This document shows positions 3,316-52,341 of a stretch of DNA of 64,000 nucleotides, piece by piece. The DNA comes from Candidatus Latescibacterota bacterium. GTDB taxonomy: Bacteria > Latescibacterota > UBA2968. Each line of letters starts with the position of its first letter. The first letter of the stretch is position 1. Where the stretch lies: contig OZ220741.1 in the NCBI GenBank assembly GCA_965116885.1, positions 1,696,001-1,760,000 of the forward strand, in the 5' to 3' direction. The translations under genes and the position numbers were made by a program. The notes under the pieces were generated by a model. That model was not told the DNA's origin. It saw only the letters and a list, made by a program, of their open reading frames with translations, and did not search any database.

Positions 3316-3435
3316 GCGTTCACTTCCGAGTAGAAGGGGGTGAGAGAAAATTTTTGCATTCTGATATTATACCGTTTTTTGGGGCGGTGAACAAGTTTCT
3401 TGTAAAACATATCTAATCTGTGTATAATGACAAAT

Positions 3436-3906
3436 ATGCAGATCACTTTGCTCACTGTGGGTAAGTTCAAAGACGCGTGTTATCGGGATGCCGCACAAAA
3501 TTATATCAAGCGGCTGCAACACTACGTCGCTTATGATGAGATTGAAGTGCGCGAAGAGCGCGCGGGCAAAAATGCCCGTGTGTCTGATATTATCGAGAAA
3601 GAAGGCCACCGCCTTTTAAGCGCGCTGCATCCAGATGCTACTGTGGTTGCTCTCGGGCCTTCTGGCAAATTGTGTCGTTCTGAAGCCTTAGCCAAACGCT
3701 TGAACCATTTGCGTGTACAAAGAAAAAACCGCCTCGTTTTTCTCATTGGCGGCCCTTTTGGGCTTGCATCTCGAGTTTTGTCGCGTGCAGATTGGCATCT
3801 GTCACTTTCACCTATGACTTTTCCGCACGAATTGGCGCGTGTGATCTTGCTCGAGCAACTCTATCGCGCCTTTACGATTATCAGAGGTGAAAATTACCAC
3901 AAGTGA
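3436..3906 (+). CDS. rlmH: 23S rRNA (pseudouridine1915-N3)-methyltransferase RlmH
   Basis: MQITLLTVGK N-terminus, FLIGGPFG, SLSPMTFPHELARVILLEQLYRA, C-terminal GENYHK. Start set at 3436; TTGTAA-N17-TATAAT (3400-3428) ends 7 nt before this ATG, suggesting a leaderless mRNA. Confidence 0.96.
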   Translation: MQITLLTVGKFKDACYRDAAQNYIKRLQHYVAYDEIEVREERAGKNARVSDIIEKEGHRLLSALHPDATVVALGPSGKLCRSEALAKRLNHLRVQRKNRLVFLIGGPFGLASRVLSRADWHLSLSPMTFPHELARVILLEQLYRAFTIIRGENYHK

Positions 3907-3913
3907 AAAAGCG

Positions 3914-4003
3914 CGAATAGACGAATAGACGAATAGACGAACCCCGCTCCACCACCCAAAATCACTAAAGACTTCGATTCGTAGATTCGCTGATTCACTA
4001 ATC
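3914..4003. repeat. Inverted pair of 8-bp tandem repeat arrays: (CGAATAGA)x3 and degenerate ATTCGTAG/ATTCGCTG/ATTCACTA
   Basis: Read directly at 3914-3941 and 3973-4003. Confidence 0.8.
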
Positions 4004-4005
4004 AG

Positions 4006-4277
4006 CCCGGGGGCAAACGACTCACACAGCCTGGGAGAGATGATTCCGCCGAGAATCCGGCTACGTTGAGTCAACTCGCCCCCGGGTTTTTAACATGTCA
4101 AAACCAAATAAGGGTAAGTCAGTAATGGCGAGTTCGCTTATTCAGAGTACTACAGTGGGAATTGGAATGGGGGAGTTCAGATAAGCAATTCAACACTTAG
4201 ATGACTGGGAAAATCCGATGGGGAATCGGTGTCACCTTACACAACTTGGGGGATTGACGAGTCTTTACCACAAGAAC
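4006..4277 (-). ncRNA. Candidate structured sRNA with repeated UCCC motifs
   Basis: Minus-strand promoter TTGACT-N17-TATCTT (4312-4284); stems pair through G.U only on the minus strand; six TCCC(C)nA motifs; no credible ORF. Confidence 0.55.
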
Positions 4278-4485
4278 GGGCTTAAGATAAGCCATTGTTT
4301 TTTTTAAGTCAAGAGTAGTTTTTTTTATATTTGATATGAGCCAGATATTGTGTGTTGCATCATTATGCCCACAGCCTAATGTGGTCCAGATACTTCTCTT
4401 ACCTTCAGATCGATCAGGTTCAGATTGTGTGGTTGGTCTAAGAGAAACATACGTTTGTAAAAATACAAGCGATGAATCGCATATC

Positions 4486-5763
4486 TTATCTTTTAAATAA
4501 TCGCGTGTACACGGTCGGTTCTTCAAAAATCCCTCCGCTTTGATCGTAGTAGGTCTCATCTAACACATAAGCACCACCTCTGGGTCGCAACCACGATGCA
4601 TTGGGCACGGGATATTCCGAGAGCATGCGATTCCAGGTGCCGTAATTTTCCGGGCCGTTGGATTCCATTAATCCCCCTTTCACACCGGGAAATGCGGGCA
4701 ATCGCGTAGCTACGTTTTTGTTCCATTCCACCAGCACGGGCACACACGCATTATCCGCTACAAAACACGGCACATTAGATAGTGTTGCTGTTTCGATCAT
4801 GCGAAAAGCCAATGACAGGGTTTTACCCGCGGGTTTGATCGCCATAGCACCGTATCCCTGCTCCAATCGGGTGTGTACATCTGCAACAGTTTCGATGCTT
4901 TCATCCCCTGCAAAACGCGCAGGTAAGCCGTGTACATCGATATCTGCTGGGCGGGAAAAGGGTTCTTCAATCAGGACAATGCGATCCAGAATACCTTCTT
5001 TTTTTGCATGGTCCAATAAGCGCGCCATGCTGTTTTTTTCGCCATAACGACCATTGGCATCGAGATAATAGAGCACATGGCCCGAATTGGTCATTTCCGT
5101 TTCGTACTGAGATGCCAGACTGTGAACCCGAGACAGGCAGGCCATGTCTTTTTTTACCATTTCCGTTTCATCTCCCGGATGCCCAATTTTGATTTTTAGT
5201 ATGTACGCCCCGCTATCTAAAATCGCCTGTAATTCATCTATGGGCAGGGTATAACTCACTGCCGGTACAAGCGCGACATGCGATTGACGATGGGATAAAA
5301 ATGAGCGAAATTTTTCTGGGATTAAGGCGTCGAATGCCGCCAATCCCATCCGTTTTGCATGCAAAATCCATGCGGCGTTGTCCAGTGCTACCAGCGCAAT
5401 CAGTGCAAATGTTCGGCGCAAATCCCCATGGCCTGTAATGGCTTTGGCATAAGAAAAGACATCGTTTTCAACGGCGTCAAATAATGCCATCGGGTCGGCA
5501 AATTCTTTTCCCTTGATTTGTTGTAGTGAAAATTCCAGAAGAGATGCTTGAAGCAAATTGCCGCCCATTTCTGTATGTGCAGCAAATACGGCAGCGTCTG
5601 ACCACAGTACAGCCAAACCACCTATCCCAAAAGCCTCATACCCATCGGCATCTTTCAAACGCACGACGAGATTCCACTTTTCGTGAAAAGCCGATCCCTT
5701 AAAAGCAAATGGCCGCGCAAATGGTTCGCGCTGAATTTCTAAATCTGTTTCGACAATACGCAT
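4486..5763 (-). CDS. Enolase-superfamily enzyme (L-Ala-D/L-Glu epimerase / mandelate racemase-like)
   Basis: LKIKIG (KxK), YLDANG, IEEP, GDES metal-ligand pattern; start moved to MRIVETD (5763). Confidence 0.8.
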   Translation of the reverse strand: MRIVETDLEIQREPFARPFAFKGSAFHEKWNLVVRLKDADGYEAFGIGGLAVLWSDAAVFAAHTEMGGNLLQASLLEFSLQQIKGKEFADPMALFDAVENDVFSYAKAITGHGDLRRTFALIALVALDNAAWILHAKRMGLAAFDALIPEKFRSFLSHRQSHVALVPAVSYTLPIDELQAILDSGAYILKIKIGHPGDETEMVKKDMACLSRVHSLASQYETEMTNSGHVLYYLDANGRYGEKNSMARLLDHAKKEGILDRIVLIEEPFSRPADIDVHGLPARFAGDESIETVADVHTRLEQGYGAMAIKPAGKTLSLAFRMIETATLSNVPCFVADNACVPVLVEWNKNVATRLPAFPGVKGGLMESNGPENYGTWNRMLSEYPVPNASWLRPRGGAYVLDETYYDQSGGIFEEPTVYTRLFKR

Positions 5764-5813
5764 TTGTTTGTATCCTTTGATAGGGGACGGTATTAATTCT
5801 TGTATCTTAAAGC

Positions 5814-5837
5814 GGGCGAGGCATGCCTCGCCCCTAC
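5814..5837 (-). repeat. GTAG-type REP palindrome GTAGGGGCGAGGCATGCCTCGCCC
   Basis: Identical copies at 38226-38249 and 62547-62570. Confidence 0.85.
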
Positions 5838-5866
5838 ATCTCACATCTTACCGCCTCTTGCCTTTT

Positions 5867-7603: not shown

Positions 7604-9289
7604 TTAAAAATAATAAATCAAATAAATTGCGAGAAAAATAATTGCGATGAGCACATTGCTTTGCGATAACCACGAACGGCCAAATAGGCCTCTATTATTG
7701 TGTTGTGTCTGAATAGTTGCAATGAGTTTTCGAACCCCTGCCTTTCCATTCTGAAAAAAGGCATTGACGAGCGGTCCACCTGTGTGGATCGTGGCGCGAA
7801 TACCTTTGGGTAGGGCGCGTCGGTAAATCCAGTCGAAGTCGAGATTGACACTGGGTTGTTCGGCTGGGTACCTGCCCGTTAGCATAAGGAAGGCAAATGC
7901 CAGCACGCCGTAGAAGACCAGTTGAAGTTGGAGCACGACATGGGTCGTGGTATAGGGCATGTAATCTATCGGATGCGGCAATAAGTTGTAGAGCAGCGGA
8001 GGATAAGCGCCTATGACCACACAGAGTATGGCTGAGATCGTCATGGCGATTCGCATGTTGAGGGGTGCTTCAGAACAGCGGATGCCTGCGTCGTGCGCGA
8101 AGAAAGAAAAAAATGGAATTTTGACACCTGCGTGGTGAAGCACGCCTGCCGATGCTGCTAACAGCACCAGCCAGATTGTCACAGCACCCATGTCGGCGAC
8201 GCCTTGCATAACCATGGGCTTGCTGATGAATGCATTGAATAGCGGAAGCGCGGAAATTGACGCGGCGCCTATCAGACAACAGGCACAGGTCCAGGGCATG
8301 GACTTGTAAAGTCCACCCAGGTCTGTGGCATTCATACGCCCGGTGCGATACAAGACAGCACCCATAGACATAAACAGTAGCCCTTTGAAGATCACGTCAT
8401 TGAATGCATGCGATACTGCGCCGTTAATACCCAGTGCGCCTCCCACGCCAATGCCGACGACCATAAATCCGATCTGGTTGATCATGCTATAGCTCAACAC
8501 GCGGCGCAGATCGTTTTCGATAACGGCAAAGAAAACCGGAAATATGGTCATGATCGCGCCGATGTAGATGAGCAGGTCTTCGCCGGCAAATCCGCGCGCG
8601 AGGGCATATACAGCGGCTTTGGTAGTGAATGCACTCAAAAATACGGTGCCTACGGGCGTGGATTCTGGATAGGCGTCAATCAGCCAGTTGTGGAGCAGGG
8701 GAAAGGCGCATTTGATTCCAAAGGATAGAAATATCAGGTAGTGATGTCCCTCATTTAGGCCGATGTGATCAAAGGCGAGAGATTTTGTGTGCAAAAAGTA
8801 GAATACCGCGCCGAGCAGGAGTAGCAAGCCCGAAGAGATGTGCATGACCAGATAGCGCATTCCCGACCGCAGTGCGCGCTCACCGCCGCGCGCCCACACG
8901 AGGAATACCGATGTGATCGCCAGCAATTCCCAGAAGATGAACAGGGTGATTAGATCGCCGGCAAATACCGCTCCAACCGCGGATCCCGCGTAGATTAATC
9001 CCGTGCCGATCTGCAACCGGTCTTTGAGGTGTAGCGCGTAAATTGCGCCGATAAAAGCCGCCAGATGGAAGAGGTAGCCAAATAGCATGCTCAAGCGATC
9101 TGCACGCAGTACGGTCAGTTCGTAGCCGCCATAGGTGATGTGCCACAGGGTGCCATCGGCAATGGTCAGCAGGTTTAAAAATCCGAGCACGGGCAAGCAT
9201 ATCGACGCGATGCGGCGCGGTGTGGTTGGCAGGCAAAATAATAACAGACCGCCCATGAGCAGGATTAGTGCGGGATGAATCTCACTCAT
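7604..9289 (-). CDS. mrpD: Mrp/Mnh Na+/H+ antiporter subunit D-like (third copy)
   Basis: FWE, IKCAFPLLHNWLIDAYPE, RRVLSYS, HAFNDVIFKGLLF; proton-antipo_M fold. Confidence 0.88.
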   Translation of the reverse strand: MSEIHPALILLMGGLLLFCLPTTPRRIASICLPVLGFLNLLTIADGTLWHITYGGYELTVLRADRLSMLFGYLFHLAAFIGAIYALHLKDRLQIGTGLIYAGSAVGAVFAGDLITLFIFWELLAITSVFLVWARGGERALRSGMRYLVMHISSGLLLLLGAVFYFLHTKSLAFDHIGLNEGHHYLIFLSFGIKCAFPLLHNWLIDAYPESTPVGTVFLSAFTTKAAVYALARGFAGEDLLIYIGAIMTIFPVFFAVIENDLRRVLSYSMINQIGFMVVGIGVGGALGINGAVSHAFNDVIFKGLLFMSMGAVLYRTGRMNATDLGGLYKSMPWTCACCLIGAASISALPLFNAFISKPMVMQGVADMGAVTIWLVLLAASAGVLHHAGVKIPFFSFFAHDAGIRCSEAPLNMRIAMTISAILCVVIGAYPPLLYNLLPHPIDYMPYTTTHVVLQLQLVFYGVLAFAFLMLTGRYPAEQPSVNLDFDWIYRRALPKGIRATIHTGGPLVNAFFQNGKAGVRKLIATIQTQHNNRGLFGRSWLSQSNVLIAIIFLAIYLIYYF

Positions 9290-9566
9290 CGTAATAGTCC
9301 TCTGATCGCATGATCATTTTTCGCAAGGGTATGGCCCCCATGACGATCAATGTGCAGGCGACGAATCCGTAAATGGCGTAAAATCCAAACCAGCCTTCAA
9401 CTGGCAACTCGCCTTCGGCAAACGTCAGGTGCCGATGCACGATGAGGTCGGTCAGGATCAATAACGCACAACAGACAAAAAAGCAGAGAATCAAGCGGCG
9501 CACATTGCCGGGATTGTCAAAAATATGTGGGCGTTCATTCGCATCAGGATATTCGGAATGGTTCAT
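9282..9566 (-). CDS. Small two-TM hypothetical protein within the mrp operon
   Basis: Overlaps both neighbours; two hydrophobic helices; GFYAIYGFVAC and RSEDYYDE C-terminus. Confidence 0.8.
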   Translation of the reverse strand: MNHSEYPDANERPHIFDNPGNVRRLILCFFVCCALLILTDLIVHRHLTFAEGELPVEGWFGFYAIYGFVACTLIVMGAIPLRKMIMRSEDYYDE

Positions 9567-11032
9567 GGCATGGCCTCTCCGATCATGAGCAACAGGTTCA
9601 GTACAGGGTCGGGATAGATATAGAGTACCAGGCAGCCGATGGCTGTAAATGATAAGGGGAGCACACAGGCAAGCGGTGCTTCGTACAGGCCGTCTGCGTG
9701 ATGGTCATCGGTTGCGGATGCAAAAAATGCATAGATGGGAATTGGCAACAAATAGAGGACGTTGAGTAGGGAACTGATGAGCAATACGCCTGCCGCGACG
9801 TAGCGATGGGCTTCAATAGAAGCCAGGACCAGATACCACTTGCTCCACGCGCCTGCAAAAGGCGGAATTCCGATAATGCTCAACGCACCGATCAAAAAGG
9901 CGAACATGGTAAATGGCATCTGCCGTCCAATGCCTTTCATGTCGCTGATTTCTGTTTTGTGCAAAGCCACCAGGATGGCTCCGGCACAGAAGAACAGGGT
10001 GATTTTGCCAAAGGCATGCGTTACGATGTGCATGCTGCCGCCCAGTACACCCAAATCATTTGCAAGCGATGCTCCCAGCACGATGTAGGATAACTGGCTG
10101 ATTGTGGAATACGCCAGTCGCGCTTTCAAGTTGTCTTTTGTCATCGCTACCAGCGATCCCACCAGAATGGTGAAGCCCGCGATGTAGGTCAGCCATTCGC
10201 TGAGACCCGCACCCGAAAGCAGATCTGTGCCAAAGAGGTAGATCACCACTTTCATTATTGTGAATACGCCGGCTTTTACCACGGCTACTGCATGCAATAA
10301 TGCACTGACAGGCGTGGGTGCGACCATTGCTGCGGGCAACCATCGGTGGAATGGCATTAACGCCGCTTTTCCGGTTCCAAAGGCATAGAGACCGAGGAGG
10401 ACGATTACAATGCCTTCGCTCGCTTTGCCGGTTAGAATGCCGCCCGGTGTAAATTCCAGCGTGCCGGTCAATTGCCAGGTCCACACCATGCCCAGCAACA
10501 AGAATCCCACGGAAGTACTCATCAAAATGCCCATGTAAATGCGCCCGGCGCGCATGGCTTCTTCACTGCGATGGTGCGTTACAAGTGGATATGTCGATAG
10601 GGTCAAGACCTCGTAAAATATGAACAGGGTAAACATGTTGCGGGCAAATGCCACGCCCAGAGCAGCCGAGATCGCAAATGCGAAGAATACAAAAAATCGC
10701 GTCTGATTTTCTTCGTGATGCCCGCGCATGTACCCGATGGCATAGATCGTGGTGACAATCCACAAACCCGACGCGATGAGGGCAAATATCATGCCCAATG
10801 GCTCTATCTGAAATGCCAGTGATAGGCCCGGCATTACGTCTATGATATGCGCGGCGGGCTGTGCGCCGTCCATCACCGAAGGCAAAAGTGAGACTACAGT
10901 GCCAAAGGTCAATACAGCCGTAATCAACGTGATTGTTTCACGCACATTGGGGCTGCGCGAGGTCAGTGCAATAAAGGGCATGCCCAGAAGCGGTAACGCG
11001 ATGGATACGAGTATGGCGGTTGATCCACTCAC
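9563..11032 (-). CDS. mrpD: Mrp/Mnh antiporter subunit D-like (second copy)
   Basis: FYEVLT, KAALMPFHRWLPAAMVAPTPVSALLHAVAVVKAG, LAYSTISQL; GTG start at 11032 overlaps the upstream TGA. Confidence 0.9.
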   Translation of the reverse strand: MSGSTAILVSIALPLLGMPFIALTSRSPNVRETITLITAVLTFGTVVSLLPSVMDGAQPAAHIIDVMPGLSLAFQIEPLGMIFALIASGLWIVTTIYAIGYMRGHHEENQTRFFVFFAFAISAALGVAFARNMFTLFIFYEVLTLSTYPLVTHHRSEEAMRAGRIYMGILMSTSVGFLLLGMVWTWQLTGTLEFTPGGILTGKASEGIVIVLLGLYAFGTGKAALMPFHRWLPAAMVAPTPVSALLHAVAVVKAGVFTIMKVVIYLFGTDLLSGAGLSEWLTYIAGFTILVGSLVAMTKDNLKARLAYSTISQLSYIVLGASLANDLGVLGGSMHIVTHAFGKITLFFCAGAILVALHKTEISDMKGIGRQMPFTMFAFLIGALSIIGIPPFAGAWSKWYLVLASIEAHRYVAAGVLLISSLLNVLYLLPIPIYAFFASATDDHHADGLYEAPLACVLPLSFTAIGCLVLYIYPDPVLNLLLMIGEAMP

Positions 11033-12507
11033 GGCGTTACCCCTATCAATAATTCGGCGGCGCGTTGTGCCACGTTGACGGTCAAGTCCGTTTGAATACC
11101 AAAATACACTGTCGCTCCTGTCAAAATCCACATGGAGATCTGCATCATTAACGGCGCTTCTTTTACATTGGCGTCATCATCGGCTTTCTGAAAGTAGGCC
11201 ACTTCAACGACGCGCCACACATATACTACGGCGAGCAGGGAACTGAGCAAGGCGAGCAGTGCTACGGGCCACCATCCGGCTTCCAGCGCGGCCAGGATCA
11301 AATACCACTTGCTGATAAAGCCCACGGTTAACGGCACGCCAATCAAGCTCAAACCCGCCAGTACAAAAGCCGCCATGGTCACGGGCATGCGCCGCCCAAG
11401 TCCTTTCCAGTCGGCAAGATCAGAGGATCCAAGGCGCAACACCGCGCAGCCCACGGCCAAAAATAGGGCGGCTTTCATCAGGGCGTGATTAAACAGGTGA
11501 ACAATCCCGCCCGTCAATCCGGTTACGGAAACAAAGCCGATGCCCAGCATCATATACCCGATTTGAGCCACGCTGGAATAGGCCAATAATCGCTTTATAT
11601 TTGTCTGGTAAATGGCGGATAGAGATGCCACGTAAATCCCGATGAGGGATAGGGGGATTAAAAAGGCATCGAGGTTGAGTTTTTCAAATACAAATTCGGT
11701 ACCCCATACGGTAAATGTGAACCTCAGAAACACGTAGATGGATACTTTTGTCGCTGTTGCTGCCAGGAAAGCCGTGATCAGAGAGGGCGCGTAACAATAG
11801 GCATTGGGCAACCACATGTGCATGGGGAACATCGCCAGTTTGATCAACATGCCCACGGTTAAGAAGGCGAATGCGACCATTGCGGTGCGCGTTTCAAACA
11901 TGGCGGGCAAGCGCTGGGATAGATCAAACATATTTAGCGTGCCGGTCATCATGTACATCAGTCCGATGCCGATGACAATAAATGTGGCTCCCAATGTGCC
12001 CATGATTAAATATTGATAAGACGCGGTCAGTGCGCGCCGGTCACGTCCCATGGCAATCAGGGTATAGGACGATAGCGATGAAATTTCCAAAAATACAAAG
12101 ACGTTAAACGCATCGCCCGTGATTGTAATGCCCATCAATCCGGTGAGACACAGCAGATAAGCTGTATAAAACAAATAATGCTGCTTACTGGAAATTTCAT
12201 CGGTCACGCTCGGCAGTGCAAAAAACATCAGCACGGCGGCGATGATCGAAACCAGTAGCAGCACAAAAGCATTGATTGTATCGACGCGATATTCGATGCC
12301 CCAGGGGGCAATCCATCCGCCTATTGCATACGAGATCACGCCTTCTTCAAGCACGCGCATGAGCAGCATAGATGCCAAGCCCAAAGAGGCGACACACACG
12401 AGAGATGCAAAAGCCCACACCAGCGTTTTTTGTCGCAATAACACACATAAGGGGGCCGATACAAGGGGTACGACGATCAACAATATGGGCAGATGCATAT
12501 CAATCAT
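11029..12507 (-). CDS. mrpD: Mrp/Mnh antiporter subunit D
   Basis: PWGIEYRVD, DAFNVFVFLEI, KLAMFPMHMWLPNAY, LLAYSSVAQIGY. Confidence 0.92.
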   Translation of the reverse strand: MIDMHLPILLIVVPLVSAPLCVLLRQKTLVWAFASLVCVASLGLASMLLMRVLEEGVISYAIGGWIAPWGIEYRVDTINAFVLLLVSIIAAVLMFFALPSVTDEISSKQHYLFYTAYLLCLTGLMGITITGDAFNVFVFLEISSLSSYTLIAMGRDRRALTASYQYLIMGTLGATFIVIGIGLMYMMTGTLNMFDLSQRLPAMFETRTAMVAFAFLTVGMLIKLAMFPMHMWLPNAYCYAPSLITAFLAATATKVSIYVFLRFTFTVWGTEFVFEKLNLDAFLIPLSLIGIYVASLSAIYQTNIKRLLAYSSVAQIGYMMLGIGFVSVTGLTGGIVHLFNHALMKAALFLAVGCAVLRLGSSDLADWKGLGRRMPVTMAAFVLAGLSLIGVPLTVGFISKWYLILAALEAGWWPVALLALLSSLLAVVYVWRVVEVAYFQKADDDANVKEAPLMMQISMWILTGATVYFGIQTDLTVNVAQRAAELLIGVTP

Positions 12508-12856
12508 TCACGCGGTCCCGTTCTATAATTTCATCTTCCTCAATTGTATCATAAGCTTCTCCAATTCGCACGACGAGTGCCAATCCCAGGGAGAGGGTTG
12601 CGATGCCTACGACAATTGCCGTCAGGATGAGTACATGGGGCAATGGGTTGGAATACGCTTCAATACCTTCACCCAGAATGGGCGCAGTGCCGCCGCTGAC
12701 TTTTCCTATGCTGATATAGAGCAAGAAAACCGAAACCTGGAAGATACTCAGGCCAATCAATTTTTTGACGAGATTGGGGCGCGCAATTGCGGTGTACAAT
12801 CCAATCATCATCAAGACCATACAGGCCCAGTAGTTGAACAATCCGACAGAGATCAT
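12500..12856 (-). CDS. mrpC: Mrp/Mnh antiporter subunit C
   Basis: NLVKKLIGL and NPLPHVLILTAIVVG. Confidence 0.93.
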   Translation of the reverse strand: MISVGLFNYWACMVLMMIGLYTAIARPNLVKKLIGLSIFQVSVFLLYISIGKVSGGTAPILGEGIEAYSNPLPHVLILTAIVVGIATLSLGLALVVRIGEAYDTIEEDEIIERDRVND

Positions 12857-13278
12857 CGCAGTCGCCTCCGACCTGCAAATGAAAAAAAGATGGCTATCAT
12901 TACTGCGGCTACGGTAATACCCACGCCGAGTTCGACCAGGAAGATGCCCAGGTGTTGTCCGTGCGGTGGGTCGGCCGGATCCAGAGCAGTATAATTCAGG
13001 AAGTTGTAACCGAGAAATAGGGAGACCAATCCCGTGCCCGCATAGAGCAAGACGCCGAGTGCGACGAGCGTTTCAATGACCCGGGGTTTTACAATTTGTT
13101 TTGCGGCTTGTAGGCCAAAAATGAGCGTGTAGAGCACCACTGCCGCGGCAAAAATCACACCGGCTTGAAACCCGCCTCCGGGTCCGAAGTCGCCGTGAAA
13201 TTGCACGTAGAGCGCGAATAACAGTATCGGCGGAATTAACCACTTGCCCACTACGCGGGGAATACTCTGATGTCTCAT
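12853..13278 (-). CDS. mrpB: Mrp/Mnh antiporter subunit B
   Basis: HGDFGPGGGFQAG and ELGVGITV motifs. Confidence 0.92.
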   Translation of the reverse strand: MRHQSIPRVVGKWLIPPILLFALYVQFHGDFGPGGGFQAGVIFAAAVVLYTLIFGLQAAKQIVKPRVIETLVALGVLLYAGTGLVSLFLGYNFLNYTALDPADPPHGQHLGIFLVELGVGITVAAVMIAIFFSFAGRRRLR

Positions 13279-13820
13279 TGCTCGTCCTCCTTGCGCCAGA
13301 TATGTCCCAGGAGCAATATTACGCCGATACCAGCCGTAAAAATCACGGCTACTTCACCCAGTGTATCGTATCCCCGGTAGCTCGCCAATACCGATGTTAC
13401 AATATTGGGGATTCCCATTTCTTCTCCCGATTTTTCAATATAGCGATTGGCAACGTGTGTGTGAACGGGCGCATTGGGGTCGCCGAACATCGGCATGTCC
13501 AGTGTGCCGTAAATAAGCGCGCTACCCGTAATGAGTACGACGAGTAGTGCCAATGCATTATTTTTTTGAGCAACTTTTTCTGCGCGCGTCGTCAATGATA
13601 ATGTGCCCAGGAGGAGCACGGTTGACACACCGGCTCCGACAGCCGCTTCGGTAAATGCGACATCGACGGCGTCGAGCAATGTAAATACGATAGCCGCGAG
13701 AAAGCTGAATATGCCCATCATCATTGCGGCCATAAACAAATTGTGCATTCGGGATACCGCAATCGCGAGTACGATCATAAAAGACAGCAGGGCGATGTCC
13801 AGTATTTCAGTCATGCTCAT
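13275..13820 (-). CDS. DUF4040/MnhB-related subunit (split-off C-terminal part of MrpA)
   Basis: AVDVAFTEAAVGAG and NIVTSVLASYRGYDTLGE motifs; start moved to MSMTEILD. Confidence 0.88.
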   Translation of the reverse strand: MSMTEILDIALLSFMIVLAIAVSRMHNLFMAAMMMGIFSFLAAIVFTLLDAVDVAFTEAAVGAGVSTVLLLGTLSLTTRAEKVAQKNNALALLVVLITGSALIYGTLDMPMFGDPNAPVHTHVANRYIEKSGEEMGIPNIVTSVLASYRGYDTLGEVAVIFTAGIGVILLLGHIWRKEDEQ

Positions 13821-14139
13821 TTTTCCCTTTGTTGTCGGGGTCGTCAACAAAAGGCTTGAGGCCCGACGTAAATGCCGCTTTGCCTACCGCGTGGGTCGAT
13901 GTGGGGCTGGTGATGAGCAATATCACCAGAATCATCACCAGTTTTACTGTGACCGTTGTCAGACCGCCCTGAAACATCAGCCCCAGCAGGACGAGGCCCG
14001 CCCCCAGTGTGTCGGTAACACCACCGCCGTGCATGCGGCTGTAAAAATCGGGTAAGCGCAAGAGCCCCAGGCCGCCTATCATGCACAGAATACATCCCGG
14101 GATAAGGCAAATCCAGCTCAATATATCGACAATCGTCAT
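13807..14139 (-). CDS. mrpG: Mrp/Mnh antiporter subunit G
   Basis: GLLRLPDFYSRMH, DTLG, TSPTSTHA. Confidence 0.92.
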   Translation of the reverse strand: MTIVDILSWICLIPGCILCMIGGLGLLRLPDFYSRMHGGGVTDTLGAGLVLLGLMFQGGLTTVTVKLVMILVILLITSPTSTHAVGKAAFTSGLKPFVDDPDNKGKNEHD

Positions 14140-14426
14140 GGTGTTTGGGTCCTGTTTTGTTCTTCCGGATCGGCACCCAGGTCATTATAGGTCACAAATT
14201 TTAGAACGGCCAATGTGCCGATAAAGTTGATCAATACATAAATAAGGGCGAGGTCCAGAAAGTCGGGTCGGTCAGTTAAAAATCCGAGTACAGCAATAAA
14301 TAATACGGTTTTGGTGCCAAACATATTTACCGATAGGATGCGATCGTACACAGTTGGCCCCAATAGGGCGCGGCAAAGTGCCAGTGCCATGGTGACCAAT
14401 ATGCCGATCATTGCCGCAATAAACAT
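14136..14426 (-). CDS. mrpF: Mrp/Mnh antiporter subunit F
   Basis: GPTVYDRI and LDLALIYVLINFIGT. Confidence 0.92.
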   Translation of the reverse strand: MFIAAMIGILVTMALALCRALLGPTVYDRILSVNMFGTKTVLFIAVLGFLTDRPDFLDLALIYVLINFIGTLAVLKFVTYNDLGADPEEQNRTQTP

Positions 14427-14427
14427 C

Positions 14428-14907
14428 TCATTGCTCCAGTGCCGTCGTCACGCGGCGGTCCATATCGCCGCTCTGTACATCGTCAGCGGCTTCTTTTGTC
14501 AGGGCATGTACCACAATATCTTCTTCGTCCAGGTCGAGTGACACAGTGCCGGGGGTCAGGGTTATTGAATTGGCAAAAATGACGCGACAGAGATCGGTTT
14601 TTTGCGTTCCCGTTACACGCACGATGCGCGGGGCAATGGGCAATCTGGGATTCAAAATGCGTTTTGCCACGTCGATATTCGCTTTGATAATGGCCCAGGC
14701 CAGCCACGGAATATACACAATCAGGTGTCGGGCCAGATTAATCTGGATCCCTTCTTCATCTACAATAGATAGACGTCCCGCCAGATAAACGACAAAAGCG
14801 CAGGACAATATACCCATGGTGAGGACCAGCGCGTGTTCAAGCGTATAATGTCCAGACCAGAGTAGCCAGAGGATAAATGACAAAACGAAAAAAAAGATGT
14901 ATCGCAT
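14428..14907 (-). CDS. mrpE: Mrp/Mnh antiporter subunit E
   Basis: ANIDVA, ANSITLTPGT, VHAL; start at MRYIFF after GAGGT. Confidence 0.92.
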   Translation of the reverse strand: MRYIFFFVLSFILWLLWSGHYTLEHALVLTMGILSCAFVVYLAGRLSIVDEEGIQINLARHLIVYIPWLAWAIIKANIDVAKRILNPRLPIAPRIVRVTGTQKTDLCRVIFANSITLTPGTVSLDLDEEDIVVHALTKEAADDVQSGDMDRRVTTALEQ

Positions 14908-15135
14908 ATAAACCTCGGATGAAAGCATGGGGGCGGTTCCTATGCCGTCCTCAGAGTCAGCCTACCGAAAAGGCACAAAAAACCCATTCGTTCGCCCGAA
15001 TAGAGTGGATGTGCGAACTATTCTATTTAATATTTTTCAACGCAAAAAATCAAGCGAAATATCTCATCGCGTCTTATCTTGTAGGCGGGTTATTTATTAT
15101 TGAGCAACTGCTTAATTAATAGAAAGGTACAGTCG

Positions 15136-15435
15136 GTGTCAACTATTCTGATCGCATATCTGTTTACAGCACTTATTTTTGGATTTTTTCTCTATTATTT
15201 TGTTTGGCGAAATCGCTATGTGACGCAGATTCGCCTATCTGTTTACAAAGTTGAAGGGCGGGTTGTGAGTATTGAGCGCGTGGTGAGAGAGATTCAGGTG
15301 AATGAGCATCGGGATCTGCTGGCATTAAAACGCATTGAGTGGAAGGTTATTTACAAAGACCGGGATGACAATCTCTGCGAGACCCGCTGCCGCGTTCAAG
15401 GAGGACAACTCGACTGGCATCCTCCGTTGAGGTGA
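15136..15435 (+). CDS. Small hypothetical membrane-anchored protein
   Basis: N-terminal TM helix followed by a soluble beta-rich segment; GTG start assumed; no family recognised. Confidence 0.5.
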   Translation: MSTILIAYLFTALIFGFFLYYFVWRNRYVTQIRLSVYKVEGRVVSIERVVREIQVNEHRDLLALKRIEWKVIYKDRDDNLCETRCRVQGGQLDWHPPLR

Positions 15436-15438
15436 CTG

Positions 15439-15663
15439 TCACACCTTTTCCGCAATGGAGACGGTGTTCTGATCTTTTTGCGCTTTTTTGCGACGTGGGC
15501 ATGTAAAGCAGGCCGAGTCTTCGTCGAGGCTCTGTTCATGGGTTTCCAGGATGTCGCCACAACAACTCTGCTGCTTTTTCTTGTACTGTGCAAATGTCAG
15601 AGCACCTGCCATGAACGCAAATGCTATGATGAGAAAGATCGTCGCTGTCAATATTGTTTCCAT
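15439..15663 (-). CDS. nqrM: NqrM-like (DUF539-type) Na+-NQR maturation protein
   Basis: Directly downstream of apbE; single N-terminal TM helix then Cys cluster SCCG...CFTC. Confidence 0.65.
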   Translation of the reverse strand: METILTATIFLIIAFAFMAGALTFAQYKKKQQSCCGDILETHEQSLDEDSACFTCPRRKKAQKDQNTVSIAEKV

Positions 15664-15673
15664 GTTAGAGTCC

Positions 15674-16678
15674 TTATTTGAGCAATGTCTCAAAATTAGA
15701 CGTCATTTTTTCCACGAATCCATCCCCCTGTCGTACAATCATAAATACGGCGAGATTGTGTTTTTCTGCATAAGCAAATCCCGTTTCCGGTCCCATTACA
15801 TTGATCGCCGTGGCCAGTCCATCGGCGTAGGCGCAGCTTTTGTGTAGTACTGTTACGGAGGCCAGGGCGTGTGTTATCGGTCGTCCGGTGCGCGGGTCGA
15901 TGGTGTGGGAATACCGTATGCCGTCGCGTTCAAAATAGTTGTGGTAATCGCCCGATGTCGCCATGGACATGTTGTTCAGGACGAGTGCTTTTTGTAGTTC
16001 GCCCTGTCCCGCGGGGCTGGCAATGCCAATTCGCCAGAGTTGTCTCAGGTGATTGTGTCCCTTTGTCCGCAGTTCGCCACCGATTTCGATAAAATAGCGA
16101 TTGATGCCCAAACTGTCCAGATAACTCGCTATGCGATCTACGCCAAATCCCTTGGCGATTGCGGATAAGTCGCAATAGATTTCGGGTCGTTCTTTTTTTA
16201 TGGTGGGAACGGATAAGTCAATGTGAATTTTTTCATAGCCGACCAGTGTTCTGCGAGCGTCAATTGAGTCGGGCGACGGCACGCGCTCGGGGATGGCGTT
16301 GGGTCCAAAACCCCACAGGTTGACCAGCGGCCCGATGGTGACGTCAAACGCGCCGTCGGACCAGGTGCTAATTTCATGAGCGATGTGTAAAACATAAGCA
16401 AAGTCCGATGAGACTGCAAACCAGTCTGTTGAAGGCGAGCGGTTGAATTGGGTGATTTCGGAGTTGTCCTGATAAGTGGACATCTGGCGATTGACTTCTT
16501 CCAATCGCGCATTGATTTCTCGGTCCAATACATCCGCGTCAAGAGTTTGGTCTTTTTGGACGATTTTGACCTGAAACGTCGTTCCCATCGTCGAACCGGA
16601 GATCGTTATCATCTGATCCTGACATCCGATAATAGTTGAGATCGAGATTAAAAAGAAGCAACGCCAAATTCTGTCCAT
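15674..16678 (-). CDS. apbE: FAD:protein FMN transferase ApbE (lipoprotein)
   Basis: Lipobox IIGC; TMGT, FDVTIGPLVNLWGFG, DLSAIAKG, ATSGDY, HTIDPRTG, ADGLATA; start could instead be 16711. Confidence 0.95.
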   Translation of the reverse strand: MDRIWRCFFLISISTIIGCQDQMITISGSTMGTTFQVKIVQKDQTLDADVLDREINARLEEVNRQMSTYQDNSEITQFNRSPSTDWFAVSSDFAYVLHIAHEISTWSDGAFDVTIGPLVNLWGFGPNAIPERVPSPDSIDARRTLVGYEKIHIDLSVPTIKKERPEIYCDLSAIAKGFGVDRIASYLDSLGINRYFIEIGGELRTKGHNHLRQLWRIGIASPAGQGELQKALVLNNMSMATSGDYHNYFERDGIRYSHTIDPRTGRPITHALASVTVLHKSCAYADGLATAINVMGPETGFAYAEKHNLAVFMIVRQGDGFVEKMTSNFETLLK

Positions 16679-16890
16679 TACCCCAAATGTCGTGTTGAAA
16701 AAACGCATCACTGTCTCTCTATCTCAGGCATTAGTGATTCTGAATGGGAATTGGGAATCATATAGCGATACTTATATCCTCCCTGTACGCACACTCTACC
16801 TATCGCTTCACTCCAAAATATATTTTAAAATCCGATCATACTGTAAATATAAATAATTTCAATAGTTTATACAAGTATTATTAAACTCAT

Positions 16891-17158
16891 TTGACACGGC
16901 ATTTTAATCTCTTTATATTCTCCAAAATAGCGAATAATCCAACAATTCAATAAGGAGGTTGACTGTGTTGCCCAAACCCGATTCGTAGCTGGGGTGCAAT
17001 AAAGTATTTGGTGGAGATTTTTCGGCATACAGCCTGTGTTTTTATTTTGACAACTAACGCGCACACAAGGAGGAGGGCCATGCCACCAACGAATTTATGC
17101 GGCTCCGATGAGAAGTCATACTGTGAATCACTTTTGATTGGAGCCGCTTTTTATTTTT
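16891..17158 (+). promoter_or_regulatory. Sigma70 promoter plus ~270-nt leader with uORFs and terminator upstream of the CBS gene
   Basis: TTGACA-N17-TATATT (16891-16919); GCGGCTCC...GGAGCCGC-TTTTT hairpin (17099-17152). Confidence 0.6.
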
Positions 17159-17202
17159 CTTGAACCCATGAAATTTTTCCCCTAACTCATGGAGGTATGA
17201 TC

Positions 17203-17646
17203 ATGACCATTCGAGATATTCTCGACCAAAAAGGTCGCCGCGTGATTACGATTGCCCCTGATCACACATTGGATGTGGTACTGGCTACGCTGATTCAAAA
17301 TAGCGTGGGTGCACTTGTCGTGCAGAATCGAACAGGAGATTTGCTCGGTATTATCACTGAGCGCGATCTGATGCGCGAGGTGTATAATGGCGCGGATTTG
17401 CAGGCTGCGCGCGTTGAAGATGTGATGACGCGCGATCTTGTTACAAGCCATCCGGATTCCGATATTGAATATGTGATGGCAGCAATGACCGAGGGGCGAT
17501 TCCGGCACATGCCGATTGTTGATGAGGTGGGTCGTCTCGCTGGCATTGTGTCGATTGGCGATATTGTTAAAGCCAAGTTGGAATCTGCTGAGGAAGAAGT
17601 GATGATATACAAGGATTTTGTCACGCTGGATTGGCGGGCATCGTAA
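17203..17646 (+). CDS. CBS-domain pair protein
   Basis: IRDILDQKG, GIITERD, VEDVMT, FRHMPIV, GIVSIGDIVK; GGAGG RBS. Confidence 0.93.
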   Translation: MTIRDILDQKGRRVITIAPDHTLDVVLATLIQNSVGALVVQNRTGDLLGIITERDLMREVYNGADLQAARVEDVMTRDLVTSHPDSDIEYVMAAMTEGRFRHMPIVDEVGRLAGIVSIGDIVKAKLESAEEEVMIYKDFVTLDWRAS

Positions 17647-17681
17647 CACAGGAGGTCGATGTGTCTGAAGAACTATCCGAC

Positions 17682-17722
17682 AAAAAAGTCTTCGGTTGCT
17701 GGGTGAACCGAAGACTTTTTTT
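17682..17722. terminator. Bidirectional intrinsic terminator (CBS gene / nqrF)
   Basis: AAAAAAGTCTTCGGTT-N8-AACCGAAGACTTTTTT. Confidence 0.85.
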
Positions 17723-17751
17723 ATGTGATTGATTTTAATTTTTAATTCTTA

Positions 17752-19002
17752 TTACCCGCCAAAATCGTCGAATAAGATATTCTCGGGTTCCACACCCATA
17801 TCGTCCAGCATATCCATGCATGCCACTAACATCAGTGGGGGACCGCAGATATAATATTCACAGTCTTCAGGAGCCGGATGATCTTTCAAATATTCATCGT
17901 AGAGTACCTGGTGAATAAATCCGGTCAAGCCCGTCCAGTTGTCTTCCGGCATGGGGTCGGATAATGCCACATGCCATGTAAAGTTGTCGAAATCGCGCTG
18001 CAATCCGTCGAAGTCATCGACGTAGAACATTTCATTCAGGCTGCGCGCACCATACCAGAAGGTTACTTTGCGGTCTGTGCCAATGCGTTTGAATTGATCG
18101 AAGATGTGCGACCGCATCGGCGCCATGCCAGCGCCGCCACCGATGAAGATCATTTCGGCATCGGTTTCTTTGGCAAAGAACTCGCCGTAGGGTCCGGAAA
18201 TGGTTACGTCATCGCCCGGCTTTAGATCAAAAGTCCACGACGACATTTTGCCCGGGGGAATACCCGTTGTGCCCGGCGGGGGGGACGCCACGCGGATGTT
18301 GAGCATGATGATCCCTTTTTCTTCGGGATAATTCGCCATTGAGTACGCGCGAAAGACGGGTTCATCTACTACCGAGACATTGTCCCATACATTGAAATGA
18401 TCCCAGGTGCTTCTAAAGCGGTCTTCCCCATCGGCGGCTTTGATGTCGAAGTCGCGGTAGTCAACGGTGTGGGGTGGGCATTCGATTTGGATAAAACCAC
18501 CGGCGCGGAACCCGACATCTTCTCCTGGCGGCAGTTCGAGAACGAGTTCTTTGATGAATGTGGCGACATTGTAATTCGAGATTACTTTGCAGTCCCATTT
18601 TTTGATGCTAAATACTTCGGCAGGGACTTCGATATCCATATCGCCCTTCACCGTGACCTGGCACGAAAGCCGACACCCTTCCCGCGCTTCTTTGCGGTTG
18701 ATGTGCGATAGTTCGGTGGATAAGATATCGCCGCCGCCTTCGTTGATCGTCACTTTGCACTGCCCACAGGTGCCGCCTCCGCCGCATGCGGAGGATACAA
18801 AAATTCTATTATCGGCCAATGTGTTGAGCAATTTGCTGCCTATGGGAACAGAAACGCTGTGGTCGGGATCGTCGTTGATGGTGATGTGAGCCTGTCCTGC
18901 GGCAACCAGCCGAGATCTGGCAATGAGAATAATCGCTACCAGCATCAGTACAATGGTGGTAAACATCCCTACACCGAGTAAAATTAGCCTTACGTCTTCC
19001 AT
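17752..19002 (-). CDS. nqrF: Na+-translocating NADH:quinone reductase subunit F
   Basis: [12 protein letters not shown] 2Fe-2S motif, [24 protein letters not shown]-terminal DDFGG; start moved to MEDVRL. Confidence 0.97.
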
Positions 19003-19025
19003 ATTATCTCCACGCTTGCCTGGAT

Positions 19026-19637
19026 CTAAAGTTGAATCCCCGAAAAGAGCATAAATGCCATTGCCATTAAGCCCACGGTCATAAACGTAATGCCCAGCCC
19101 GCGCAATGCAGGTGGCACGTTGCTGTATTTCATTTTTTCTCGTATGCCCGCCAGCCCGACAATGGCGAGCGCCCAACCCGTGCCGCTGCCCAGCCCAAAG
19201 ACGACGCTTTCTGAAAAATTAAAGTCGCGTTCGACCATGAGCAGGGAACCGCCTAAGATCGCGCAGTTCACTGTGATCAGAGGCAAGAATATGCCCAGGG
19301 CGTTGTATAGAGAGGGCACGTATTTGTCCAGTACCATTTCCAAAATTTGAATCATCGCGGCGATTACGCCGATATATGTGACCAGGCCCAAAAATGTGAG
19401 ATCTACGTTTGGCAAACCCGCCCAGGCGAGCGCGCCTTCGGTCAGGACATGGGTAAAAATTAAATTGTTGATCGGCACTGTAATTGTCTGCACCACAATC
19501 ACCGCAATGCCCAGGCCCACAGCGGTTGTCACCTGTTTGGAGACAGCGAGATATGTACACATGCCCAGGAAGAAAGCGAGGGCCATATTTTCGACAAAAA
19601 CGGCTTTGACAAATAAGCTGATATAGTGTTCGGCCAT
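19026..19637 (-). CDS. nqrE: Na+-NQR subunit E
   Basis: [12 protein letters not shown] and [11 protein letters not shown]; start moved to MAEHY. Confidence 0.97.
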
Positions 19638-19638
19638 T

Positions 19639-20322
19639 TTAATCCTCTTCCACTTGCTCGGGTTTCCACGCTCGCACAACCCAGATGAAGAACCCGATTA
19701 AGAAAAACGCACTCGGCGATAATAACATCAAGCCGTTGGGCATGTACCAGCCGCCTTCGGTAATGAGTGGCAAAATGTCAACGCCCAGAAGTTTACCCGA
19801 TCCCAAAAGTTCGCGGAAAAACCCCACCACAATTAAGATGGTACTGTAACCCAATCCATTTCCCAGGCCATCTAATAAGCTGTGCGTGGGGGGATTTTTC
19901 ATTGCAAATCCTTCGGCGCGTCCCATGATGATGCAGTTGGTAATGATCAGTCCGACAAAGATCGACAATTGCTTGGATATGTTGTAAGCAAATGCCTGAA
20001 TAGCCTGGTCGGCGATAATCACAAGCGAGGCAATAATGGTCATTTGTACGATGATGCGGACGCTGGACGGGATGTGATTTCTGATCAGGCTTACCGATAT
20101 ATTGGAAAGCGTGATAACAAAAATGACCGCCAAAGACATGACAATTGAGGTTTCCAGCTTTGTGGTCACCGCGAGTGCCGAACACACGCCCAATACCTGA
20201 CGCCCGATGGGGTTGTCATCAAAGATGGGCGTCCATATCAGGCTTTTGGCTTCTTTCGCCGTCAATGACGGTGATGGTGGCACTTCTGGCGCTTGTTCTT
20301 CCCGTTCGATTACTTCAGCCAC
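19639..20322 (-). CDS. nqrD: Na+-NQR subunit D
   Basis: [12 protein letters not shown] and [17 protein letters not shown] start after AAGGAGG. Confidence 0.97.
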
Positions 20323-21112
20323 GAGCACCTCCTTGTTTTAGCGTGTCTAAAAATCGACCGTATCCTTCGTTGCCCAACCAGTACTTGAGCATACTGTCTA
20401 ATCCCCGTGTGGTGATGGTCGCTCCCGATAGACCATCGACCTGGTATTTTGCTTTTTCACTTTTGGGATTTACCTGGCCTTTGATTACGGAAATTGCGAC
20501 ATTGCCAGCATCGTCATAAGCCTGTTTGCCGGGCCACAAGCCCTTCCATCTGGCGTTATCGACCTCGCCACCCAGTCCCGGGGTTTCGCCGTGTTCGTAA
20601 AATGTGATGCCCTGAATGCTTTGCAGGTCATTGCCCAGAGAGACAAAGCCGTAGAGTGTGGACCAGAGACCATAGCCGTAAATGGGCAAGATAATGCGCT
20701 GCAATTTGTCGTTTTCCATCACTTTATAAACGAAGATGTATTTCGGACGGTTGCGAATATTTGCTATGTCTCTATCCGCATCAACAGAACGCCCAAAAGT
20801 GGGGTCGGCGGCCATTTTCTTTAAGTCATACGTATCTACGTCGATACCATCGGGATATTCTTCGTTGTTCAAGATCTGCCCCGTGTCCAGTTCAATAAGC
20901 AGTGGTACGACTTTATTTTCGTAAACGGACTGGACATCGACCGAGGGATCGTATAGCCCACCCGCAATCAGGATATTTTTTACTTTGTCGAGGCGTTTGT
21001 TTTCTTTTTGGATATCGTGTAAGGATACCGCAAATAGTGAGACAAAAAGAGAACAGACCAGACAAAGGGCCACCGCAACAAAGATCGTTTTTTGGATGCT
21101 GTCATTCTGCAC
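20315..21112 (-). CDS. nqrC: Na+-NQR subunit C
   Basis: [24 protein letters not shown] (FMN-Thr motif); GTG start. Confidence 0.96.
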
Positions 21113-22301
21113 GGGCCAGTCTCCTTTGGATATTGCGGTTGATAAAGACGCGGTCAATGATGGGCGCGAATACGTTGGCGAATAATATGGCCAGCATGAT
21201 GCCTTCGGGATAGGCCGGGTTGGTCACGCGGATCAATACTGTCATGACGCCTATCAAAATGCCATAGATCCATTTGCCCTGGCGCGTCATGGCTGCGCTG
21301 ACCGGATCGGTTGCCATGAATACCGTGCCAAATGCAAAGCCGCCGATGACGAAATGCCAGGCTGGAGATACGTTGAGCAGTGGATTGGTGGTGCTGCCGA
21401 TCCAGTTGAAGAATAGTGCAGATACAATCATGCCGATGGTTACACCGGCCATAATTTGCCACGAGCCAACGCGTGTGAGAATTAGAATGCCGGCACCCAG
21501 CAAGCAGCAAAGCGTTGAGGTTTCTCCCATGGATCCCGGAATCAAACCGATAAATGATTCCCACCATGTGTAATCCATCTGGATATGGGTATCGGCATAG
21601 GCCGCGAGTGGGGTTGCCTGACTATATCCATCGACGGCGATCCAGACTGCATCGCCCGAGATTTGCGCGGGATAGGCAAAATAGAGAAATGCGCGGCCCG
21701 TGAGCGCGGGGTTTAAGAAGTTCATTCCCACGCCGCCGAAGATCTCTTTGCCTATTACAACGCCAAAGATGATGCCTATAGCGACCTGCCACAGGGGAAT
21801 CAGGGGCGGCATTGTCAGGGGGAATAGCGTGCTGGTAACGAGAAATCCCTCGTTGATCTCGTGTTTGCGAATGACTGCAAAGATGGCTTCGCATAAGCCG
21901 CCCGCGGCTACGGTTACGAGTTGTACGGGTACAAAGTAAATAGCGCCAATCGCAAGACAACTGAGTACGTCGGAGGGCAGGAAGGACAAGCCCAGTACCT
22001 GGGCGAGCCAGACGTGCCAATCGCCAGTGCCGATTGCGCCGATATTTTGATAGGCCAGGCTGGCTTGCAAACCCGTATTGTACAGGGCAAATAAAATACA
22101 GGGTTGTAGCGAGAGTACGACCGTAATCATCATCCGCTTCAAATCCATGCCGTCGCGCACATGTGCATCGGCCTGGGTAACCTCACCGGGGGTGTAGAGG
22201 AATGTGTCCCCGGCTTCGTAAAACGGATACAGTTTTTCGAGTTTACCGCCTTCTTCAAAGTGCTCTGCCTGTTTGTCCAATAAATCGCGTAGGGGCTTCA
22301 C
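21102..22301 (-). CDS. nqrB: Na+-NQR subunit B
   Basis: [46 protein letters not shown]. Confidence 0.97.
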
Positions 22302-22309
22302 TATCCTTA

Positions 22310-23662: not shown

Positions 23663-23685
23663 TATGGTCCTCAATTTTTTCCAAT

Positions 23686-52099: not shown

Positions 52100-52341
52100 G
52101 GTATTCTCCCGATGGAAAAGTCGGAGGACCAGATGTGTTTTAGTATTTGTTAAAATATTGTAAGGAGATGTCTTTGTCAACAGATTCCAATCAGTTAAAC
52201 ATCGTACAGGAGGCTATGTTGATAACGCCTGACTGATGGGGCGGTTCCGGTTTTTGCGATTCTGTACTTGACCCTCTGAAAAGAAGAGTCTTATGTTGAA
52301 GCAATGGACAAAAGAGGATCTAAACCATTTAGGGGGATTTA

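Follow-up and report, generated by a model that had tools for sequence, protein, structure and literature searches.

What does the intergenic gap between rlmH and p452 encode in a Candidatus Latescibacterota bacterium? In the 64-kb stretch of contig OZ220741.1 analyzed here (the window; positions 1,696,001 to 1,760,000 of the contig, G+C content 50.6%), these two genes converge, with rlmH on the plus strand and p452 on the minus strand, and 579 nt lie between them. This gap contains a compact conserved unit, featured by a promoter-like site at one end, a long hairpin at the other and four conserved C-rich sites. Our analysis favors a trans-acting small RNA (sRNA) that would bind G-rich Shine-Dalgarno (SD) regions through its C-rich loops and bulges; we regard this as the best reading of the locus and give it a probability of roughly 0.55.

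The unit was compared across related genomes. An RlmH search of genome contigs provided 17 loci, 15 of them from Candidatus Latescibacterota metagenome-assembled genomes (L001-L015) and two from distant Desulfobacterales. RlmH identity to the window amounts to 93-98% in L001-L014 and 81% in L015, and to 41 and 37% in the two Desulfobacterales loci. The alignment comprises 15 sequences, i.e., the window and 14 loci, L009 being left out as its contig stops at rlmH. In all 15 Latescibacterota sequences that reach past rlmH, window positions 4000-4319 correspond to a single conserved block 3' of this gene, bordered by the -35 element of the promoter-like site on one side and by the base of the hairpin on the other, and flanked by spacers that cannot be aligned. 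The number of invariant columns rises from 0 of 10 at 3980-3999 to 6-10 of 10 over 4000-4089, is moderate in the linker, peaks at 8-9 of 10 (4210-4229) and 7-9 of 10 (4280-4309) and drops past approximately 4320. L015, the most distant relative, has no p452, yet retains the unit, and its similarity to the window fades within some 10 nt beyond the -35 element (4 of 10 columns in the 4320s, 1 of 10 in the 4350s). This loss of identity and the column profile together indicate that the unit spans from the -35 element to the hairpin base. The aligned stretch (window 3995-4283 and equivalents) measures 258-300 nt across sequences; subtracting some 15 nt from each of these values gives the expected length of the RNA itself, which is about 280 nt in the window. 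The following elements are distinguished, in the reading direction of the minus strand:

4319-4326, minus strand: A8 tract (T8 on the plus strand) just 5' of the -35 element; an A/T run is kept in 15 of 15 sequences.
4284-4312, minus strand: sigma-70-like promoter-like site with -35 TTGACT (4312-4307), a 17-nt spacer and -10 TATCTT (4289-4284); 9 of 12 matches.
4277, minus strand: predicted transcription start, a G located 7 nt past the -10 element (+/- 2 nt), from promoter geometry only.
4248-4253, minus strand: C-run 1 (UCCCCC), in or beside a 5' hairpin of species-varying register; UCCC in 14 of 15 sequences.
4199-4237, minus strand: module 1, with outer stem AGGUGAC/GUCAUCU, an inner hairpin and a pyrimidine-rich 3' bulge.
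4215-4229, minus strand: inner hairpin of module 1, CCGAU-UCCCC-AUCGG, with C-run 2 in its loop; the UCCCC loop is invariant.
About 4090-4198, minus strand: pyrimidine-rich, weakly structured linker with lineage-specific indels of 27-40 nt.
4165-4178, minus strand: C-run 3 (ACUCCCC; C-run 4174-4169) within the linker, in a weak mini-hairpin of 3-4 bp (GAAC/GUUC).
4006-4086, minus strand: module 2 and putative terminator, an 81-nt hairpin with an inner hairpin at 4042-4057 and a variable apical loop.
3996-4005, minus strand: 3' tail past the hairpin, CUGAUUAGUG in the window and of the CUGAUUUUAA type in most relatives.
4087-4091, plus strand: T5 run that follows this hairpin on the rlmH strand; all 15 sequences carry T4-T7 here.

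Not all of these elements are conserved to the same degree. Mean pairwise identities were calculated over 14 sequences, without L015, whose rlmH differs in length. Compared with the third codon positions of rlmH (0.851; first and second positions 0.964), the promoter block (0.961), the terminal hairpin (0.952) and module 1 (0.927) stand out and are thus under constraint, which is not detectable for the linker (0.852) and for the 5' end (0.751 over the first 48 alignment columns).

The structured parts of the unit fold consistently. Of 750 cells (50 pairs), 96.4% hold standard pairs, vs. only 31-44% when the pairing partners are slid by one to three columns. The two helices of module 1 are paired in 98.1 and 100% of the cells, with an invariant CCGAU/AUCGG stem, and its bulge (4206-4214), AUUUUCCCA in the window, is AU(U/A)UUCUC(N) in most other sequences. 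A conserved stretch, UUUGGUUUUGACAUGUU, lies between the linker and module 2. The terminal hairpin consists of 25 + 6 pairs (99.2 and 95.6% paired) and contains an invariant 10-nt bulge, AUCUCUCCCA, at 4032-4041, which harbors the fourth conserved UCCC site. Module 1 (4199-4237) and the long basal stem at 4006-4086 fold as the preliminary description of this DNA had claimed. An inverted-repeat search of 3900-4420 reported no repeat, although the folds pair 4006-4086; this discrepancy is unexplained and we relied on the folds. The mini-hairpin of the linker is less regular, with only 78.3% of its cells paired. We do not claim a conserved 5' hairpin, as its register varies by species, nor a long-range contact of the 5' region with the linker (GUCAA/UUGAC), whose pairs break in L004 and L011.

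The two modules share a common architecture: an outer stem of 7 bp is followed, after a 1-nt spacer, by an inner hairpin of 5-6 bp and a pyrimidine-rich 3' bulge of 8-10 nt. A duplicated module had been described beforehand, and the folds confirm the common architecture but not the duplication. Built on 40 positions and 12 pairs, a covariance model of module 2 (effective number 4.57) scores its own sequence with 66.8 bits and misses module 1 in the window, even at E <= 10 with filters off. Since this model is dominated by sequence, an old duplication stays compatible with the result. The likeness of the two modules is one of architecture and not a demonstrated duplication.

The strand on which selection acts can be read from the wobble pairs, because a G.U pair on the minus strand appears as an A.C mismatch on the plus strand, and vice versa. 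The robust helices are the terminal hairpin plus the two stems of module 1, outer and inner; in their 43 pairs (645 cells), the minus strand holds 560 Watson-Crick pairs, 76 G.U, 7 A.C and 2 other combinations. Five pairs of the terminal hairpin are G.U in 9-15 of the 15 sequences; a standing A.C is found at no pair. When gains and losses are counted by a tree-aware Fitch procedure on a tree built from the flanking genes, 23 G.U events are opposed to 4 A.C events (binomial approximately 1.6e-4) with the loop-closing pair left out, and 28 to 7 with this pair included. The folds point in the same direction. The RNAalifold consensus reaches -55.9 kcal/mol with 55 pairs on the minus strand, vs. 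-39.97 kcal/mol with 46 pairs on the plus strand, where the big hairpin retains only 21 pairs. Likewise, the single-sequence fold of 4006-4280 is better than its shuffles on the minus strand (z = -2.24; 3 of 200 shuffles equally good) and hardly differs from them on the plus strand (z = -0.67; 48 of 200 as good). We are therefore highly confident that the selected RNA lies on the minus strand. The pairs that had been described as working solely as G.U on this strand are evident in the ratio of 76 to 7 cells.

The most conspicuous sequence feature of this RNA is the UCCC motif, which occurs on the minus strand (as GGGA on the plus strand) at 4253, 4224, 4210, 4174, 4160 and 4036. Six GGGA within 4031-4250 represent the maximum for any 220-nt segment of the 64 kb, a level that is reached by a fraction of 0.00016 of the segments. 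The six motifs of the preliminary description are thus all present, but only four are conserved in at least 14 of the 15 sequences: those at 4253 (14/15), 4224 (15/15), 4174 (14/15) and 4036 (15/15). The motifs at 4210 and 4160 occur in 1 and 5 of the 15 sequences, respectively. From 5' to 3', the four conserved C-rich sites are UCCCCC near the 5' end, the UCCCC loop of module 1, the CUCCCC of the linker and the terminal-hairpin bulge AUCUCUCCCA. According to partition functions of all 15 sequences, they are largely exposed, with mean probabilities of being unpaired of 0.82, 0.78, 0.91 and 0.79 in the same order, compared to 0.70 for the module 1 bulge and 0.43 for all positions. The RNA is G-poor outside its stems and GGGA is found in none of the 15 RNAs. 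The conserved, unpaired C-rich motifs that characterize the class of anti-SD sRNAs (RNAIII, RsaE, LhrC) are hence found in this RNA.

Candidate signals for a stand-alone gene are located at the two ends. The promoter-like TTGACT-N17-TATCTT at 4312-4284, already recognized in the preliminary description, is present with 25 of its 29 columns invariant, vs. 6 of 14 columns in the adjoining stretch 4270-4283. The A8 tract upstream of it may, judging from its sequence, be UP-element-like. At the other end, the hairpin 4006-4086 with the T-run on the plus strand has the sequence properties of an intrinsic terminator of rlmH, as had been suggested, and would work in two directions, serving both convergent units. 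A plain rlmH terminator accounts for 4006-4091 only, leaving some 230 nt and the minus-strand wobble bias. On the minus strand, the tail contains a four-U run in 8 of 15 sequences.

The unit matches no RNA that we could recognize. At gathering score, Rfam returns no match in the whole window, and permissive scans (E <= 10) of 3850-4450 and of L015 4480-4900 give only E-values of 0.44-7.3, far under the gathering scores, for unrelated families such as small nucleolar RNAs, DUF3800-IV and wcaG. A transfer RNA or transfer-messenger RNA is rejected by ARAGORN (0 genes in 3800-4500). A 6S RNA is rejected as well, since the ends are unpaired in both consensus and single folds, a rod is not formed and there is no match to the Rfam 6S family. 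The open reading frames (ORFs) 4197-4559 (minus), 3808-4074 (minus) and 4336-4497 (plus) have no Pfam match and the alignment contains 1-nt indels, so that a coding function was discarded too. The earlier proposal of a stand-alone, structured minus-strand RNA of about 270-280 nt, of a type that could not be recognized, is supported by the boundaries, the wobble bias and these negative searches. We thus appear to deal with a new RNA family, most likely of a known functional kind; the mechanism as proposed would repeat a known one.

According to this mechanism, the stand-alone noncoding RNA gene would be transcribed from the promoter at 4312-4284, with a start near 4277, up to the hairpin 4086-4006, which would end the sRNA and, in the opposite direction, rlmH. 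The C-rich sites would then pair with SD regions of mRNAs such as GGGGA, GGGAG or GGAG, and this pairing would block translation initiation. The several sites may be redundant or may act on several mRNAs simultaneously. SD-led initiation seems to be used in the host. An SD-like duplex of <= -5.5 kcal/mol precedes the first start in 19 of 51 window ORFs, a count obtained without a background control. An example of a GGGG-type SD is UAGGGGGAUUUAAUG at 52342.

Similar designs are known from other phyla. The Cuckoo/CcsR RNAs of Alphaproteobacteria consist of repeated stem-loop modules with C-rich, anti-SD-like motifs in their loops. Rfam gives no match of the present RNA to such families, and its modules are not detectably repeated copies. 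LhrC of Listeria monocytogenes has a length of about 100 nt, so that the present RNA is much longer; there is no homology between both. LhrC is also multicopy, whereas a second copy is absent here from the window and the 17 loci: nhmmer with a profile of the 15 sequences retrieves only the 15 known copies, besides two weak partial self-hits in L013 (E 0.079 and 0.78). Shared with LhrC is that the terminal hairpin also bears a site. Each site of LhrC can bind a G-rich sequence before a start codon, and multi-site UCCC sRNAs that work through base pairing exist (PMC4132741). In Staphylococcus aureus, the unpaired UCCC of RNAIII, RsaE and other Rsa RNAs attaches to SD regions and thereby prevents formation of the initiation complex (PMC2790875). 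Like the present unit, the sRNAs of that work have several UCCC motifs in loops or unpaired stretches; they also have an own promoter and a terminator hairpin, for which the present unit shows candidates. In contrast, there is no similarity in sequence or covariance model, the phylum is another one and the G+C content is about 51% instead of low. Moreover, two of the motifs are here located in 3' bulges of long stems, the RNA measures about 280 nt and its pairing is proposed by analogy.

A number of observations weigh against a base-pairing sRNA on the minus strand. Prediction of duplexes between five C-rich segments and the 51 start regions of the window yields no target above background; the best predicted duplex (-24.9 kcal/mol) is located at an internal start and does not reach the 0.1% quantile of the background (-26.2 kcal/mol). 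Most SD-like sites in the window are of the GGAG/GAGG and not of the GGGG type. The promoter scan, taken alone, is at chance level (3 sites vs. 2.1 +/- 1.3 in shuffles), and the -10 region overlaps with a terminator-like hairpin and T-run on the plus strand (4279-4305). At the 3' end, the U-tail is weaker in 7 of the 15 sequences, including the window. Concerning the structure, the contrast between both strands is weaker when all six helices are counted (33 G.U, 14 A.C and 11 other events). The mini-hairpin at 4165-4178 even shows the opposite tendency (5 A.C-type vs. 1 G.U event), its fourth pair being C.A on the minus strand in 6 of 15 sequences. The 5' hairpin, which has no conserved register, contains an A.C on the minus strand in L010. 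Finally, the alignment of related genomes called for in the preliminary description, which places the unit in 15 of 15 sequences with the high share of standard pairs given above, contains no compensatory double change (0 of 50 pairs), and shuffle controls were uninformative. As the relatives are close, the structure rests on one-sided, wobble-preserving changes and on the strand bias rather than on classical covariation.

The absence of predicted targets in the window also lends weight to the main rival, in which the minus-strand RNA is a decoy or sponge that titrates a protein binding C/U-rich single strands, or a G-rich RNA. One motif at four conserved sites of a single RNA would suit such a function. 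The same is true for the two sites held in modules of like build, the stems of which match the motifs in conservation (0.927 and 0.952), more than base pairing needs, and for a length of about 280 nt, which is long for an sRNA of the seed type. Yet, among the 59 window ORFs scanned no RNA-binding family was found, the modules are not detectably homologous repeats, and base pairing by multi-site UCCC sRNAs has a precedent (PMC4132741). We consider a sponge of this kind unlikely, albeit a serious competitor. Far less probable is a CsrB/RsmZ-like sponge on the plus strand, with GGA or GGGGA in its loops and its end at 4279-4305, a possibility that had been raised as a caveat. CsrA is reported to bind GGA motifs and to be sequestered by sRNAs that offer several such sites (PMC4894983, PMC5027483). 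CsrB, CsrC, RsmY and RsmZ resemble the present unit in being structured, a few hundred nt long and rich in copies of a single short motif, and the complement of the unit indeed displays GGA in a hairpin loop: seven plus-strand GGA sites lie within 4034-4251, one of them in a CCGAU-GGGGA-AUCGG loop. In addition, the plus strand has a terminator-like GGCTTAAGATAAGCC followed by T8 at 4279-4305, and the mini-hairpin at 4165-4178 suits this strand better. However, the wobble bias of the robust helices (76 vs. 7 cells, 23 vs. 4 events) would leave the five G.U pairs as standing A.C mismatches, the plus-strand fold is weaker (z = -0.67), and the selected strand carries UCCC and no GGGA. The promoter scan did not reveal a plus-strand promoter-like site past the rlmH terminator (4087-4150, up to the motif cluster), where the sequence is interrupted by indels of 27-40 nt. 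Furthermore, changes in the 5' half of the 4279-4293 hairpin are left uncompensated, and no variation is seen in its 3' half, in the T-run or in the AAGTCAAGA that follows, a pattern that fits a minus-strand promoter better than a plus-strand terminator. Rfam gives no Csr/Rsm match. As for csrA itself, a Pfam scan that covered 40 ORFs of the window, a small part of the genome, returned no hit to CsrA.

Two further explanations dispense with a trans-acting RNA altogether. The transcript could act in cis, either as an antisense RNA that reaches the 3' end of rlmH where termination at the hairpin is poor, or as a processed 3' extension of the p452 mRNA. The tail CUGAUUAGUG is weak in the window, as are those of six other sequences, another hairpin, though imperfect, lies with GCGCUUUUUCA right next to the rlmH stop of the window, and a block at 4325-4390, conserved in 14 of 15 sequences, joins the p452 stop to the promoter. 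Against this, conservation is lacking in the spacer that separates rlmH from the hairpin, and the second minus-strand hairpin (3915-3990), which would precede GCGCUUUUUCA, folds no better than shuffles (z = -0.84). The four-U tail is present in 8 of 15 sequences, L015 retains the unit even though both p452 and the upstream block are missing there, and the conserved C-rich sites are left unexplained, making action in cis quite improbable. Even a conserved RNA may be superfluous if the block is merely DNA, namely a two-way rlmH terminator with regulatory DNA, kept through close kinship. RlmH is indeed 93-98% identical in 14 loci (81% in L015), double compensatory changes are lacking and the linker (0.852) is no more conserved than the third positions of rlmH (0.851). 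Promoter, module 1 and hairpin, however, clearly exceed this third-position identity, between spacers that are unalignable on both sides. The strand-biased wobbles point to selection on RNA, and an 81-nt hairpin with an invariant 10-nt bulge exceeds the needs of a terminator. We hold such a purely DNA-based explanation to be very improbable, and the plus-strand CsrA sponge discussed above to be scarcely credible. An sRNA that would pair with SD regions remains the interpretation we prefer.

Upstream of the sRNA promoter, the block at 4325-4390 mentioned above (absent from L015) contains GCCAGATATTGTGTAT at 4340-4355 and, at 4369-4384, a hairpin of sequence CCACA-GCCYAA-TGTGG. This block may be where a regulator of the sRNA promoter acts, or it may belong to the p452 mRNA as a 3' element. 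A search of the window for the upstream motif GCCAGATATTGTGT with <= 3 mismatches gave 11 matches vs. 5.8 +/- 2.2 expected, the sole exact match being the motif itself. Extra sequence at 4390-4470, separating the hairpin of this block from the p452 stop, is found in the window, L004, L008 and L010 and is missing from L003, L005, L011, L014 and others. A near repeat of 15 nt (87%) connects the -10 region, TTAAGATAAGCCATT (4282-4296), with TTCAGATAAGCAATT inside the sRNA (4176-4190). By eye, no matching -35 element accompanies the latter, and the repeat may be due to chance or be a vestige of duplication.

The two genes that border the gap are as follows:

3427/3436-3906, plus strand: rlmH (Pfam SPOUT_MTase, 3.9e-52; NCBIfam RlmH models).
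4486-5844, minus strand: p452, a 452-aa ORF and conserved neighbor, syntenic in 13 of 14 comparable loci.

rlmH seems to be leaderless. A promoter-like TTGTAA-17-TATAAT ends at 3428 (window 3400-3436), and the Pfam and NCBIfam matches start at residue 4 of the 3427 ORF, corresponding to the ATG at 3436, 8 nt past the -10 element. The spacer between rlmH and the hairpin (3907-3999) contains CGAATAGACGAA three times with an 8-nt period (3914-3941), in addition to a partly complementary, GATTCG-rich stretch. This spacer is unalignable between species; in others it is nearly missing or holds inverted repeats of a different kind. The sequence of p452 has no match in Pfam, NCBIfam or PDB; protein Atlas features place it near MR_MLE_C (enolase-superfamily) clusters with a score of 0.98, which is a lead only and unrelated to the RNA. 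Elsewhere in the window (7604-23773 and 53667-56723) are a Mrp-type cation/proton antiporter cluster, the nqrA-F genes for Na+-NADH:quinone reductase with apbE, and a fused GlyQS glycine-tRNA ligase. Two large tetratricopeptide repeat (TPR) proteins with a GWxTD domain are encoded at 24127-26478 and 49616-52180.

In the main texts of the literature searched, we found no regulatory RNA of Latescibacterota. A more far-reaching and still tentative idea, which we would rather doubt than assume, is that the unit represents the first regulatory RNA family of this phylum: a C-rich hub with four sites, two of them held in a recurring scaffold of stem, inner hairpin and pyrimidine bulge, which would serve as a global repressor of mRNAs with G-rich SD regions or as a sponge for a C/U-motif partner. 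No new principle is involved here. The candidate adds a family to annotation of the Rfam type, offers access to post-transcriptional control in a phylum for which metagenomes are the only source, and allows a test of whether C-rich anti-SD regulation is convergent outside Firmicutes. If the proposal is true, control of the UCCC type, hitherto tied to Gram-positives of low G+C content, would have arisen independently in the Fibrobacteres-Chlorobi-Bacteroidetes (FCB) lineage.

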